Positions 1-4,028 of a stretch of 4,314 bases of DNA are shown here, in pieces. The stretch comes from a virus (taxonomy: Duplodnaviria; Heunggongvirae; Uroviricota; Caudoviricetes). The notes under the pieces were generated by a model, which saw nothing but the letters and a program-made list of their open reading frames with translations, made no database searches and had not been told where the DNA came from. The translations under genes were made by a program, and so were the position numbers. Location: IMG/VR virus record IMGVR_UViG_2671180460_000009; one strand, written 5' to 3'. Position 1 is the first letter of the stretch; every line of letters begins with the position of its first letter.

Positions 1-315
1 CATCTGAGTGACGGTTCTTTATGGGATCGCCAGGCTTTTCCGGACACCACAATCCTTGAGATCCGTCCCCGGAAAAGACTGAAACATGCAGGTGATGGTG
101 GCAACAGTGGCGGTCTGCTCAGTTTCACATCGGCACATACCGACGCCTGGCGTCAGCAGGGCTACGAGGACACGATGTTGACGATGGAGCATATCCGGAA
201 ACCGCTGGCGGCGCGTCAGGTACTGTCCCGGTCAGAAACGGTGTTGCAGAAAAGTCTGGAGAAAACGGAAGAGGCAGATTCGGCACTGAGAAACGCGATG
301 GCCCGGATTAAATAA
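1..315 (+). CDS. 3' end of an upstream protein-coding gene (5' end outside window); possibly the island GTPase (YfjP/YkfA/YeeP family), but identity not established
   Basis: Frame 1 is open from position 1 to TAA at 313..315 (105 codons, checked codon by codon); GC-rich, coding-like composition; followed by an intrinsic terminator. The GTPase guess is only by synteny with K-12 CP4 islands, where a GTPase precedes the DUF932 gene. Confidence 0.6.
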   Translation, partial: HLSDGSLWDRQAFPDTTILEIRPRKRLKHAGDGGNSGGLLSFTSAHTDAWRQQGYEDTMLTMEHIRKPLAARQVLSRSETVLQKSLEKTEEADSALRNAMARIK

Positions 316-330
316 AGACGCTCCGGAGAA

Positions 331-358
331 ACGCCACCGCCTGTGGTGGTGTTTTTCT
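331..358 (+). terminator. Rho-independent terminator of the upstream gene
   Basis: ACGCCACC (331..338) pairs with GGTGGTGT (345..352) as an 8 bp stem with one G-U wobble, 6 nt loop GCCTGT, followed by a T-run (352..356), 16 nt after the TAA stop. Confidence 0.55.
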
Positions 359-359
359 G

Positions 360-443
360 GCTGGTGTTATTGAAAATATTTTCAGATATATATTACCTGG
401 ACGATGGTTAAGATTAATTTATTTAATTTTGGAGAGAAAACTC
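360..443 (+). promoter_or_regulatory. Putative promoter and ribosome-binding region for the first cargo gene
   Basis: AT-rich intergenic DNA; TTGAAA (370..375) is a possible -35, with several TATA-like hexamers downstream but none at ideal spacing; Shine-Dalgarno GGAGAG at 431..436, 7 nt before ATG 444. Promoter hexamers are by eye only. Confidence 0.3.
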
Positions 444-902
444 ATGAAACTGTTAAACATTCTTTTATCTGTTGTTTTAACTGTAAGTGCAACCGTCGCA
501 CAAGCAGAATCGGCATTGTGGAAGCGTAACAGTGTTGCCGGAACTGATATGTTCAGTATTGGTAATGTTTCTATTAACTGCACGACTAATCCAGAAGACA
601 ACAATTTGCTACCGCACTATGTGTGGATTTACGGTCATACCCCCACCCCGCTAAATCAGTACGATTCTGATATCATTTTTATCATCAACGGTAAAGAGTA
701 TCCGGTCCCACCTGTCGACGGAACACGAATGAATGAGAACGAATGGGTACACTTTATCGATGCTATCGGTGAAGCCACGAAGTTCGACGTTTTAGTAAAC
801 GGTAAGAAAGTTGACAGCTATACCACAAATATCAAAAATGTGAAAAAGATTTTGGGTAACAAATTCTACGGCAGCTGCTGGAGCACCTGGTTCCAGGAAT
901 AA
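444..902 (+). CDS. Exported hypothetical protein, 152 aa, cleavable Sec signal peptide, two cysteines
   Basis: ATG 444 preceded by GGAGAG; N-terminus MKLLNILLSVVLTVSATVAQA|E has a basic residue, hydrophobic core and AQA signal peptidase I site; Cys46 and Cys145 in the mature part; AT-rich codon usage. The ORF-track start at 429 is a TTG with no better RBS. No family recognised. Confidence 0.8.
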   Translation: MKLLNILLSVVLTVSATVAQAESALWKRNSVAGTDMFSIGNVSINCTTNPEDNNLLPHYVWIYGHTPTPLNQYDSDIIFIINGKEYPVPPVDGTRMNENEWVHFIDAIGEATKFDVLVNGKKVDSYTTNIKNVKKILGNKFYGSCWSTWFQE

Positions 903-1027
903 TTGATAACGTGGTGTAAAACACCTCAGTTTAATTTAATACAGTGAGTGAAAATGAATATCATAAAAATATTTTCTGCTTCAGATGTCACATATTTTAT
1001 TAACTGAATGATTAACAGGAGAATCAG

Positions 1028-1567
1028 ATGAACTGGCATTATGAAAAAAATGGTGTACGTTATGATAACGTAACAGAGGAAGATATTATTGAACGTATCC
1101 GCCGTGGTGAACTGAATGCATCAACACTGGTGTGGCAATAGGGCATGCTGGAATGGCAGCCAGTTTCAGCCACATCACTGGCGGAAATACTGAAACAAAG
1201 TGAAGTTCCTCCGGCCCTTCCGGGTCACCGCATTCCCGGAGGCGTTGTCTGGACGCTGGCATTTGCCCCTTTGATTGGATACATACTTGAGATGTGGACT
1301 GCCGGGCTGAACGGTATGTCATTTGAACGGGCTTATGATGCAGTCAGCGAAGGCCAGTACTGGTTTATCTCTCTGATTCTGAATATTGCTCTGGGATATC
1401 TGGATGAACGAAAACTCCGTAAATCTGGCGTGGATACCACAGCATTTGGCTGGCTGGCATGGTTGATCCCGGTTTATCTGTGGCGTCGGGCAAAAATCCT
1501 CGGGCAAAAACCTGCTTATTTCTGGGTCTGGTTGGTTATGCTGATACTGGTGTTATTTACGGTCTGA
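1028..1567 (+). pseudogene. DUF4339 (GYF-like) domain fused to a 3-4 helix membrane region, interrupted by an in-frame amber codon at 1139..1141
   Basis: ATG 1028 has a strong AGGAG at 1017..1021 (6 nt spacing) and encodes MNWHYEKNGVRYDNVTEEDIIERIRRGELNASTLVWQ, then TAG, then the same frame continues as GMLEWQPVSA... into the 1145..1567 ORF. The W-Y-x-NG ... TLVW-x-x-GM-x-W pattern matches DUF4339 as I remember it, and the stop falls inside that motif. Downstream hydrophobic runs (VVWTLAFAPLIGYILEMWTAGL, YWFISLILNIALGYL, AFGWLAWLIPVYLW, AYFWVWLVMLILVLFTV) look like TM helices. ATG 1145 has no convincing RBS. Confidence 0.65.
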
Positions 1568-1836
1568 TATTCTTTATCGCAGAGTTTACTAAATAATCAG
1601 GTTATTAGTGTTCTTAACAGGTAAATGATGTTCATCATGGAACGGATATATTTTATTTGATTCAGGAGACAGTCAGAAACATAGTATAAATATATCGCCA
1701 TGTTGAAGGTCATATCTTCAGGTATTTGTTTAATAAACAAGTCGGGAGTTAATCCTGACCTCTCGAGTGGATTATAAGTATTGCAGAAACAGTTTTTATA
1801 CTTTTATTTAATATCAGAAACAATGGAGTATTTATC

Positions 1837-2250
1837 ATGAAAAATATCATCACTATTTTAATGATTGCAGTTATCAGTTTCTTTACTGCTAATGTATCAG
1901 CAAACAATGCCGTTCCTTTACCAACCAACCTGACTGATGTTACTGACGGTACAGAATTCTGGTGTCAGGGTACTGATACTATCGACGGAGGTTGTGAATA
2001 CCTGGGCACATCCAAAGACATGCAATACGGTCTGGTACACGCCATGGGGGGTACAGCGTGCTGGGATGGTTTATACGGCGTAATTAATTTCTATACCGGT
2101 AAAGCCCAGACCATCAAATACAACAACAATCAAAGTTGTGAAGGCAACATCACCGCCAGTTTCGTTACCCTGAAAAACGGTAAACCGGGCGTTAAACTTT
2201 ACGACAATACGATTCATAAGGTTGTCGGGCTTGACGAAATCAAATTTTAA
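1837..2250 (+). CDS. Exported hypothetical protein, 137 aa, cleavable Sec signal peptide, four cysteines
   Basis: ATG 1837 with GGAG at 1825..1828 (8 nt spacing); N-terminus MKNIITILMIAVISFFTANVSA|NN is a typical signal peptide with a VSA cleavage site; Cys43, Cys53, Cys75, Cys101 in the mature part; AT-rich codon usage; strong terminator 50 nt downstream. No family recognised. Confidence 0.8.
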   Translation: MKNIITILMIAVISFFTANVSANNAVPLPTNLTDVTDGTEFWCQGTDTIDGGCEYLGTSKDMQYGLVHAMGGTACWDGLYGVINFYTGKAQTIKYNNNQSCEGNITASFVTLKNGKPGVKLYDNTIHKVVGLDEIKF

Positions 2251-2300
2251 TGTATGAATTATAGTATCTTATCTGCGCGTTATTAATATCAAATGTAAAT

Positions 2301-2336
2301 AAAGCCCCGGCCATTATGGCAGGGGCTTTATTTTTA
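2301..2336 (+). terminator. Strong Rho-independent terminator after the second exported-protein gene, possibly bidirectional
   Basis: AAAGCCCCGGCC (2301..2312) pairs with GGCAGGGGCTTT (2318..2329) as a 12 bp stem with one internal mismatch, 5 nt loop ATTAT, followed by ATTTTTA (2330..2336); an A-rich tract lies upstream (2291..2303), so it could also terminate minus-strand transcripts. Confidence 0.75.
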
Positions 2337-2629
2337 CTGAAAATACATGACGGGCTGTACATTACTTTTATTTTCCGAAGACCCTTTCTCACGCAAACAG
2401 ACAGTTGCTGTCATAACAGCTTACCGCAATGTGTTTATCCAGGAATGCATTTCCGGCGGATTATCCGCAACGCGGAAGGTCAGCGACGCTGGCGCTGCCG
2501 GAATTCTGAACCCGATGTAGGCAAATAACTTAATGCGTGGCTCACCAGTGAAGGGCTTCCCGGACAATAAACCTCATTCATTTCACCCATCAGGCCGCGT
2601 CTTCTCCGGGAGACGCGGCTTTTTCATTT
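2337..2629 (+). ncRNA. Candidate small RNA or regulatory leader bracketed by two terminators (hypothetical)
   Basis: About 260 bp with no ORF carrying a credible RBS; the only + strand ORFs here (70 aa at 2316..2528, which starts inside the terminator stem, and 57 aa at 2347..2520) lack a Shine-Dalgarno. The stretch is bounded by the terminator at 2301..2336 and ends in a second perfect terminator hairpin at 2594..2629. No RNA family recognised. Confidence 0.25.
2594..2629 (+). terminator. Rho-independent terminator or attenuator hairpin 40 bp upstream of the DUF932 gene
   Basis: GCCGCGTCT (2594..2602) pairs perfectly with AGACGCGGC (2611..2619), 9 bp GC-rich stem, 8 nt loop, followed by TTTTT (2620..2624) and CATTTA. 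Confidence 0.6.
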
Positions 2630-2669
2630 ATTACACCAGTAAATCTTAACCACCGATAAGGAGCAAATT

Positions 2670-3488
2670 ATGCGACTAGCCAGTCGTTTTGGTTATGCGA
2701 ACCAGATACGCCGTGACCGTCCGCTGACACACGAAGAACTGATGCACTATGTGCCGGGGATTTTCGGGGAAGATAAACACACGTCCCGAAGCCAGAACTA
2801 TACGTACATCCCCACCATCACCGTACTGGAAAGCCTGCAGCGGGAGGGCTTTCAGCCCTTCTTCGCCTGTCAGACCCGCGTACGTGACCCGGGCCGCCGG
2901 GAATACACCAAACACATGTTGCGTCTGCGGCGGGCCGGAGAGATAAACGGACAACATGTCCCTGAAATTATTCTGCTCAACTCCCATGACGGTACCTCCA
3001 GCTACCAGATGCTGCCGGGTTACTTCAGGTTCATCTGCCAGAACGGCTGCGTCTGTGGTCAGTCTCTGGGGGAAGTGCGTGTTCCACACCGGGGAAATGT
3101 AGTGGAGAAAGTTATCGAAGGGGCTTACGAGGTGGTGGGCGTGTTTGACCGGATAGAGGAGAAGCGTGATGCCATGCAGTCGCTGGACCTGCCGCCACCG
3201 GCACGCCAGGCGCTGGCACAGGCGGCACTGACTTACCGTTATGGTGACGAACATCAGCCCGTCACCACCGCCGACATTCTGACGCCACGACGCCGGGAGG
3301 ATTACGGTAAGGACCTGTGGAGTACTTATCAGACCATCCAGGAGAATATGCTGAAAGGCGGGATTTCCGGTCGCAGTGCAAAAGGAAAACGTATCCACAC
3401 CCGTGCCATTCACAGCATCGACACCGATATTAAGCTCAACCGCGCATTGTGGGTAATGGCAGAAACGCTGCTGGAGAGCCTGCGCTGA
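2670..3488 (+). CDS. DUF932 / UPF0380 family protein (YafZ/YfjQ-like)
   Basis: ATG 2670 with AAGGAG at 2658..2663 (6 nt spacing); 272 aa; the translation (MRLASRFG ... ILLNSHDGTSSYQM ... VIEGAYEV ... TPRRREDYGKDLW ... ENMLKGG) resembles the E. coli K-12 prophage UPF0380 proteins YafZ/YfjQ as I recall them; GC-rich backbone composition. Confidence 0.9.
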   Translation: MRLASRFGYANQIRRDRPLTHEELMHYVPGIFGEDKHTSRSQNYTYIPTITVLESLQREGFQPFFACQTRVRDPGRREYTKHMLRLRRAGEINGQHVPEIILLNSHDGTSSYQMLPGYFRFICQNGCVCGQSLGEVRVPHRGNVVEKVIEGAYEVVGVFDRIEEKRDAMQSLDLPPPARQALAQAALTYRYGDEHQPVTTADILTPRRREDYGKDLWSTYQTIQENMLKGGISGRSAKGKRIHTRAIHSIDTDIKLNRALWVMAETLLESLR

Positions 3489-3542: not shown

Positions 3543-4028
3543 ATGAAAACCATTTCACATAATTCCACCACATCTTCTGTTTCCGTAACCGCTGCATCAG
3601 GGAATGACCAGCCTCAGTTGGTTGCCACCATAGTCCCTGATGAACAGCGCATCAGCTTCTGGCCGCAGCATTTTGGCCTCATTCCACAGTGGGTGACCCT
3701 GGAGCCCAGTGTTTTCGGCTGGATGGACCGTCTGTGCGAAGACTACTGCGGTGGTATCTGGAATCTGTACACTCTGAACAACGGCGGGGCATTTATGGCC
3801 CCCGAACCGGATGACGATGATGACGAAACCTGGATACTGTTCAATGCCATGAACGGCAACCGCGCTGAAATGAGCCCGGAAGCCGCTGGCATTGCTGCCT
3901 GTCTGATGACGTACAGTCATCACGCCTGCCGTACGGAGTGTTATGCCATGACGGTCCATTATTACCGGTTGCGGGATTACGCCCTGCAGCATCCGGAATA
4001 CAGTGCCATTATGCGTATCATCGACTGA
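3543..4028 (+). CDS. Antirestriction protein, ArdB/KlcA family (YfjX/YafX-like)
   Basis: ATG 3543 with AGGAG at 3531..3535 (7 nt spacing); 161 aa; translation closely resembles the K-12 prophage antirestriction proteins YfjX/YafX from memory, including WPQHFGLIPQW, GGIWNLYTLNNGGAFMAPEPDDDDDE and HHACRTECYAMTVHYYRLRDYA. Confidence 0.9.
   Translation: MKTISHNSTTSSVSVTAASGNDQPQLVATIVPDEQRISFWPQHFGLIPQWVTLEPSVFGWMDRLCEDYCGGIWNLYTLNNGGAFMAPEPDDDDDETWILFNAMNGNRAEMSPEAAGIAACLMTYSHHACRTECYAMTVHYYRLRDYALQHPEYSAIMRIID

Follow-up and report, generated by a model that had tools for sequence, protein, structure and literature searches.

The interval that separates the cargo genes from the DUF932 gene in the 4314-nt stretch of DNA analysed here (the window) is probably made up of three parts, a bidirectional-looking terminator, a dead copy of a DUF905 gene and a terminator-like hairpin, with the module that follows fed by read-through. 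For the most part this is ordinary, a publicly annotated pseudogene together with terminators. What appears mildly new, as judged by comparison of sequences, is a conserved and unannotated family of terminators that precede DUF932 and antirestriction genes.

The annotation of homologous complete genomes assigns the window to a CP4-type genomic island of E. coli. Identical or nearly identical DNA in these genomes is annotated, in this order, with a dynamin-family protein, RdcB, a patatin-like phospholipase and three small cargo genes, followed by ‘DUF905 family protein (frameshifted)’ and then by DUF932, an antirestriction protein, RadC, DUF987 and CbeA/CbtA. The cargo gene upstream of the interval (1837..2250, + strand, from the ORF list) encodes 137 aa with an N-terminal signal-like sequence; its product is annotated as ‘hypothetical protein’ in FORC_069 and SCPM-O-B-9427 and has no match in Pfam. 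On the other side of the interval lies the DUF932 gene (2670..3488, + strand), the first gene of a DUF932-antirestriction-RadC-DUF987-CbeA/CbtA module according to the annotation of homologous loci. Its Shine-Dalgarno (SD) sequence AAGGAG is found at 2658-2663 on the + strand, and the antirestriction protein gene follows at 3543-4028. The identities of these two genes, named in an earlier note on this DNA, were confirmed by Pfam (PF06067, E = 6e-52, and PF03230, E = 1e-35, respectively).

The two halves of the window differ in composition and in ancestry. The cargo part is AT-rich, with a GC content of ∼32-45% from ∼300 to 2400, and the GC content is 49-61% from ∼2400 onward. Positions 1-2631 are nearly identical to FORC_069 (100% identical over 2251-2631), while 3′ of 2632 the identity to FORC_069 is ∼93% and the closest sequence is that of ZH193 (96%). 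Comparison with these two genomes thus places a mosaic (recombination) junction at 2631..2632. The islands are, on such comparisons, mosaics with conserved and variable modules. The segment 2337-2669 is present at 12,172 places in complete E. coli genomes.

The DUF905 sequence

The interval 2337-2657 had been described in the earlier note as non-coding, with no convincingly translatable ORF, and this description has to be given up. Two overlapping ORFs, 2347-2520 and 2316-2528, are the N- and C-terminal halves of a DUF905 protein (PF06006; the YkfF/YpjI/YubL family, also UPF0401). The frame-corrected translation of 75 aa matches PF06006 with E = 1.1e-13 (51.4 bits, profile positions 4-68 out of 70); the C-terminal ORF by itself scores 24.6 bits, the curated cut-off for this profile being 22.3 bits. 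The reading path on the + strand begins at ATG 2347, runs in frame 1 to ∼2441 and in frame 3 from 2442, and comes to the ancestral DUF905 stop codon, TAA, at 2568-2570.

Intact DUF905 genes of 77 aa are found in the equivalent position, ∼100 nt 5′ of DUF932, in ATCC 25922, AR_0017, ZH193, DSM 103246, UC4315 and Z1323CEC0009. The alignment with intact copies, which carry GGATGACCCG at 2441/2442, shows that the window copy has a 10-nt deletion with its junction at 2441..2442 on the + strand (columns 131-140 of the DNA alignment; also seen in the protein alignment, which includes the intact homologues and K-12 YkfF). The placement of the deletion is ambiguous by 3 nt due to a GGA microrepeat. The deletion cuts into the conserved DD(P/Q)G motif, part of which is lost, and puts the following codons out of frame. 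In the shifted frame, translation and alignment show a TAA nonsense codon at 2526..2528 (+ strand), where other copies have GTG or CAG. The copy in SCPM-O-B-9427 (94%) has the 10-nt deletion and no TAA at 2526-2528, which makes the nonsense codon the later lesion; the copy would thus have been inactivated first by the deletion and then by the TAA.

Since 2347..2570 matches the family profile while its frame, uninterrupted over ∼77-79 codons in working members, is broken by both the deletion and the TAA, we regard this region as a DUF905 family pseudogene, an assignment that translations, the Pfam profile and alignments make nearly certain. It has already been flagged as such by public annotation: the PGAP/RefSeq label ‘DUF905 family protein, frameshifted’ stands on the same DNA in FORC_069 and on the 94% identical copy in SCPM-O-B-9427. 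Its location is the usual one for the family, directly upstream of a DUF932 or antirestriction gene in CP4-type islands of E. coli and other genera. DUF905 genes have decayed independently elsewhere, by a different deletion in the Ag43-linked copies (loci L005, L007 and L012) and by 5′ truncation in locus L013 and in locus L014 (O157 Xuzhou21/Sakai).

Programmed frameshifting that would rescue the DUF905 product was considered and rejected. The deletion is absent from the intact copies, no slippery heptamer of the type X XXY YYZ is visible in the sequence at the 2441/2442 junction, and the later stop codon at 2526-2528 rules the mechanism out. The papers found to name DUF905, ykfF or yubL give neither a function nor an RNA element, and NCBIfam holds no model for the family. 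The practical value of the assignment is corrective: a stretch that looked like an orphan non-coding region is a decayed gene and not a small RNA (sRNA) candidate to be carried forward.

The two hairpins

Hairpin 1 (2297..2335), detected by folding and by sub-threshold Rfam terminator shapes, has the layout AAAUAAAGCCCC-G-GCCA/UUA/UGGC-A-GGGGCUUUAUUU, with an A-run on its 5′ side and a T-run on its 3′ side. The fold of 2297-2333 has a free energy of −23.8 kcal/mol on the + strand (z −5.5) and −24.3 kcal/mol on the − strand (z −5.7), and none of 200 shuffled sequences was as stable on either strand. The terminator part of the Rfam Thr_leader model picks up the hairpin on both strands, below threshold. 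Because the predicted stability is similar on the two strands, hairpin 1 looks like a strong bidirectional terminator, in agreement with the earlier note. It would end the transcript of the upstream cargo gene (1837..2250) as well as any convergent transcription.

Hairpin 2, found by a terminator scan, by folding and by covariation, occupies together with its U-tract positions 2592..2632 on the + strand, between DUF905 and DUF932. It begins 21 nt past the ancestral DUF905 stop codon; the sequence in between (2571..2591, + strand) is rich in C and A and poor in G, and the corresponding stop-to-hairpin spacers in other genera are likewise C/A-rich and are not alignable. The stem has 13 bp (2592-2604 paired with 2609-2621), eight of them G-C pairs, and closes on a UCCG loop; the tail that follows it is UUUUUCAUUUAUU. 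Within this stem lie nine contiguous Watson-Crick pairs (2594-2602 with 2611-2619), which is the ‘perfect 9 bp’ GC-stem terminator with a T-run of the earlier note; its spacing to AAGGAG and to ATG 2670 is also as was claimed.

On the + strand hairpin 2 folds with −24.5 kcal/mol (z = −5.7), and 0 of 200 shuffled sequences were as good. On the − strand the free energy is only −17.3 kcal/mol, a difference that stems from the G.U pairs of the stem, and the U-run is absent. We therefore treat hairpin 2 as a + strand element. It has the features of an intrinsic terminator: a GC-rich stem within the range of 5-14 bp, a short loop, a stability greater than expected by chance and, on the transcribed strand alone, a U-tract directly after the stem.

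Homologous hairpins precede DUF932 in Klebsiella, Citrobacter, Lelliottia, Serratia, Trabulsiella and an enterobacterial MAG. Many stem positions differ between them (compare the arms GGCCACACTTCC/GGAAGTGTGGCC with GGCCGCGTCTTC/GGAGACGCGGCT), and a T-run follows the stem in all the homologous as well as the analogous hairpins. The earlier note had proposed a covariation analysis in homologous islands, and its outcome was positive. In an alignment of 13 sequences from several genera, Escherichia included, a small set with members related to one another, 97% of the hairpin 2 cells pair and four pairs (14 cells) are changed on both sides; none of 500 shuffles matched the observed covariation score or the percentage paired. 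As a control, the pairing partner was slid by 1-3 columns, and pairing fell to 44-59%. RNAalifold, applied to 15 whole spacers (again a small and related set), predicted the terminator stem alone, with 13 pairs and compensatory change in 7 of the 13.

The frequent G.U pairs, and the fact that changes go through G.U, point to selection acting on the + strand transcript. Given the compensatory changes and the G.U pairs on the + strand, hairpin 2 looks like an intrinsic terminator at the RNA level; we hold it to be very probably a functional RNA-level element of the terminator type, as far as sequence evidence can tell. A literature search with the hairpin 2 sequence as DNA, RNA and reverse complement returned no paper.

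The sequence of 99 nt that links the stop codon with the start of DUF932 was found at 11,335 places in 4307 of 5426 complete E. coli genomes, nearly all of them at least 90% identical and without an annotated feature beneath. This number is in line with that of the island copies (12,172 places, see above), so that the hairpin and leader belong to the islands and are not a free repeat. Mean pairwise identities were 0.94 (DUF932), 0.86 (spacer) and 0.80 (DUF905). The statement that the spacer is more conserved than coding sequence is therefore only partly true, the spacer lying between the two genes, and part of the near-invariance of hairpin 2 within E. coli may be due to its linkage with the strongly conserved DUF932 block.

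A similar layout recurs in other islands. The scan based on the DUF905 alignment, with one genome per species, gave 66 loci. Almost all loci in which DUF905 precedes DUF932 or an antirestriction (YafX-like) gene have a GC-rich hairpin in a spacer of ∼100 nt, with the T-run 20-45 nt before the next start. The arrangement DUF905-hairpin-antirestriction, with hairpin sequences unrelated to hairpin 2, occurs in K-12 at ykfF-yafX and ypjI-lfgA and at >25 loci of other genera; the arrangement GTPase-hairpin-DUF932, also with unrelated hairpins, occurs in K-12 at yfjP-yfjQ and ykfA-yafZ. Since unrelated hairpins hold analogous positions in K-12, CP4-type islands give the impression of modules strung together, with terminator-type hairpins set between them. 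Such a terminator family would mark off the modules, a GTPase or DUF905 gene, then the hairpin, then a DUF932 or antirestriction gene, with no room for a promoter in between.

Expression of the DUF932 module

The last paired base of hairpin 2 (2621) is separated from the DUF932 ATG (2670) by 48 nt, a stretch that includes a strong SD. On the + strand of 2250-2672 no sigma-70 site reached 9 of 12 consensus matches, the best sites having 7-8 of 12; a consensus scan of this kind can miss weak, activator-dependent or alternative-sigma promoters. Because no sigma-70 promoter fits in the 48 nt, the DUF932 module is probably fed by read-through. We suggest that hairpin 2 stops most of the transcripts arriving from the side of the variable cargo and DUF905, and that a minority reading through a leaky terminator would supply the DUF932-antirestriction-RadC-toxin/antitoxin module at a low level. 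Where the cargo meets the conserved module, hairpin 2 would then serve as a constitutive attenuator or insulator, and RNAs of the pseudogene would be untranslated by-products ending at hairpin 2 rather than a selected sRNA. While the composition of the interval is the firmer part of this explanation, we put the chances of the leaky intercistronic terminator with its read-through at about even.

The E. coli Term-seq supplements of eLife 2021 contain nothing for ykfF, yafX, ypjI, yfjX, yfjP, yfjQ, ykfA or yafZ, and nothing is listed for the corresponding position of Sakai in the small-gene (RIBOseq) supplements. In a study of K-12 the ykfF sense transcript was not detected and an antisense RNA was reported (PMC5389530). 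CP4-type islands are poorly expressed in the laboratory.

A first alternative, which we consider unlikely though the most serious of those weighed here, is that hairpin 2 is a full stop and that the DUF932 operon is driven by a separate promoter, weak, factor-dependent or of leaderless type, which overlaps the T-tract and leader (2621-2668). No variation is seen among the E. coli copies in the T-tract or in the TTTTCATTTAT that comes after it, and a site with 7 of 12 matches, TTTTCA-15-AATCTT, does exist there; it is the best one after the hairpin and would start transcription ∼4 nt before the SD. The recombination junction located exactly at 2631/2632 also suggests a module boundary. Silencing and atypical promoters are common among island genes of this genus, a circumstance that counts in favor of the same alternative. 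A promoter placed wholly 3′ of the stem, however, would have its start at or inside the SD, given the 48-nt gap and an SD that begins at 2658. E. coli has two unrelated versions of the leader from the T-tract to the SD, and other genera have yet others, which leaves no conserved −10 element; what is kept across genera, in the alignment of spacers, is ATAAGGAG at the SD. No site reaches 9 of 12 matches. A promoter overlapping the T-tract, or one inside DUF905, may still be present.

The earlier note had also suggested that the operon could be controlled by termination and antitermination in its leader. Termination is plausible, as hairpin 2 is conserved and no promoter was found after it; antitermination found no counterpart in the alignment, where only the terminator stem emerged. 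In its full form, with hairpin 2 being overcome by an antiterminator fold, by a protein or by processive antitermination, for example on entry into a new host, the idea seems to us rather unlikely. It would account for the retention of a hairpin directly 5′ of DUF932 and antirestriction genes whatever the preceding gene and for the missing promoter downstream of hairpin 2, and it would suit antirestriction functions that, to go by the family annotation, are needed only transiently. Against it, the 15 spacers show no conserved alternative structure or antiterminator in RNAalifold, and the hairpins stand anywhere from 21 to ∼55 nt beyond the stop codon, a spread that speaks against ribosome-coupled control. 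The RfaH ops element is absent from the window, where only chance-level matches with two mismatches were seen, all on the − strand, and no regulator gene is evident within the window.

A more far-reaching version of conditional control would make the hairpin and leader (∼100 nt), together with the analogues before antirestriction genes, a dedicated and unannotated control element of CP4 islands: a conditional terminator that would silence the module when the island is resident and that would give way, by read-through or by processing to a stable RNA, upon transfer or de-silencing. We regard this proposal as improbable.

Another alternative, and one to which we give little credence, is an sRNA with its 3′ end at hairpin 2, be it an isrC-like RNA of the island or one derived from the 3′-UTR of DUF905; the earlier note had listed an independent small transcript among its candidates. 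The terminator hairpin would provide a defined 3′ end, the element is very widespread, and the 3′ 140-190 nt of DUF905 persist along with the hairpin in the 5′-truncated copies (L013 and L014/Sakai). The body of such an RNA would nevertheless be a decaying coding sequence with protein-gene-like variation and independent deletions, and the sequence between stop codon and hairpin is not conserved between genera. No promoter with at least 9 of 12 matches was found on the + strand before the interval. Only five consecutive U stand 3′ of the stem, fewer than is typical for Hfq-dependent sRNAs. The search for relatives was negative as well: in a blastn comparison (word size 7) of isrC with the window the best match was 11 nt long (E = 0.34) and fell outside the interval, and the best Rfam hit, Thr_leader with 28.3 bits against a threshold of 55, covered the stem of hairpin 1 only, with nothing in 2337-2657 proper. 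The hairpin sequence is in no paper retrieved by the literature search mentioned above, and neither the EcOnc nor the Hfq-CRAC data have an sRNA at 1.450-1.453 Mb of Sakai, the equivalent site. The likeness to isrC was rejected, and the independent sRNA is not supported.

An element acting at the DNA level, with the inverted repeat as a protein-binding site, a recombination hotspot or an oriT-like hairpin, might be imagined from the recombination junction directly after the repeat and from the mosaic of conserved and variable modules in the islands, but it is very improbable. The G.U (G.T) wobbles of the stem turn into C.A mismatches on the opposite strand, and the changes go through G.U; each variant of the hairpin has a T-run after it, the unrelated ones at analogous positions among them; and homologous recombination by itself would be expected to leave a junction where a conserved block ends.

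If the reading as a leaky terminator is true, it would explain how the widespread DUF932-antirestriction-RadC-CbtA/CbeA module is shielded from variable cargo and held at low expression.

Comparison with known systems

Two island-borne RNAs invite comparison. IsrC (K-12 b4435), encoded in CP4-44, an element related to CP4-type islands, is an RNA with a terminal terminator hairpin. The earlier note had placed it in a comparable region; on the K-12 map isrC is flanked by the GTPase pseudogene yeeP and by flu, on the upstream side of the cargo, in contrast to the interval studied here, which extends from a cargo gene to DUF932. Esr41 (EcOnc14) is an Hfq-dependent sRNA in EHEC SpLE1/OI-43, and SpLE1 also carries a copy of hairpin 2, before ECs_1401. 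The Esr41 gene is located at Sakai 1,422,407, between z1181 and z1182, ∼29 kb from the hairpin at ∼1,451,875-1,451,905. The suggestion that Esr41 or another SpLE1 sRNA occupies the same site was rejected, since every SpLE1 sRNA listed has another map position, and the Hfq-CRAC list for EHEC Sakai contains no island sRNA at 1.450-1.453 Mb.

The K-12 paralogues are closer in kind. The DUF905 pseudogene ypjI of CP4-57 shares with the window copy the family (PF06006), the kind of island and the annotation as a pseudogene, and it has the same layout, with a terminator-like hairpin and U-run 50-60 nt on and the start of the next gene within ∼25 nt. The intact K-12 paralogue is ykfF of CP4-6, whose structure (PDB 2HJJ) matches the intact homologue with E = 8e-16. 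The differences are also clear. The K-12 CP4 islands have no similarity to the window at the DNA level (blastn of 2251-2669 against three islands gave chance matches), YkfF is only 43% identical in protein sequence to the intact E. coli homologue used, and the lesions of ypjI are not those of the window DUF905. The gene downstream of ykfF and ypjI is the antirestriction gene yafX or lfgA, whereas it is DUF932 in the window, and the hairpin downstream of DUF905 in K-12, ACGCCAGC-CATCGCC-GCTGGCGT, is unrelated to hairpin 2.

For the mode of action that we propose, a functional analogue may be the rplL-rpoB attenuator of the rplKAJL-rpoBC operon, an intrinsic terminator within an operon that attenuates the distal genes. 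Unlike that attenuator, hairpin 2 follows a gene that is dead in this copy and sits at the border of mosaic modules in a mobile island. Like it, hairpin 2 has a GC-rich stem and a U-tract between co-oriented genes with no promoter after it, and by analogy the distal genes would depend on read-through.

Hairpins between island modules

In two E. coli K-12 islands the spacer between the GTPase and DUF932 genes, yfjP-yfjQ of CP4-57 (L017:3572-3668, + strand) and ykfA-yafZ of CP4-6 (L016:8004-8100, − strand), contains a GC-rich hairpin with a U-rich tail, situated 35-40 nt ahead of the DUF932 start. GC-rich hairpins with U-rich tails are likewise present in the ykfF-yafX (L016:5205-5310, − strand) and ypjI-lfgA (L017:10812-10925, + strand) spacers. 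The modules of CP4-type islands thus seem to be generally set apart by terminator-type hairpins, without space for promoters. Four genome contig matches (L018, L021, L075 and L082) carry near-identical E. coli-type DUF905-hairpin-DUF932 sequence on very short contigs from assemblies assigned to Actinoallomurus, Arthrobacter and Streptomyces, where it most likely represents contaminating enterobacterial DNA.

Mosaic junction and gene decay

A mosaic junction lies at 2631/2632 of the window, directly 3′ of the terminator T-tract of the second hairpin. The island copy of E. coli strain FORC_069 differs from window 1-2631 at only 14 positions; past the T-tract identity to it falls at once to ∼93%, and the nearest relative of the downstream DUF932 block is strain ZH193 (96%). 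The leader from the T-tract to the Shine-Dalgarno sequence (2658-2663) occurs as two unrelated variants among E. coli copies.

Within the DUF4339-domain gene (1028-1567) a single C-to-T change at 1139 turns CAG into TAG and breaks the gene into ORFs of 37 and 140 aa, while the FORC_069 copy is unbroken (179 aa). The split gene thereby adds a second mark of decay to the window's island copy.

Antisense promoter-like sites

Two − strand promoter-like sites within 2258-2292, TTAATA-17-TATAAT (10/12) and TTGATA-18-GATACT (9/12), face left, into the 137-aa cargo gene (1837-2250, + strand) from its 3′ end, and antisense transcription may start from them. For ykfF, which belongs to the related island CP4-6, a K-12 study reported an antisense RNA (PMC5389530).

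Spacer ahead of the second hairpin

In the pseudogene copy, untranslated RNA from 2520 on might increase Rho-dependent polarity. The spacer that leads from the DUF905 stop codon to the hairpin (window 2571-2591; homologous spacers L045-L072) is unconserved in sequence between genera and C/A-rich and G-poor in all of them, a make-up resembling that of Rho-utilisation sites.
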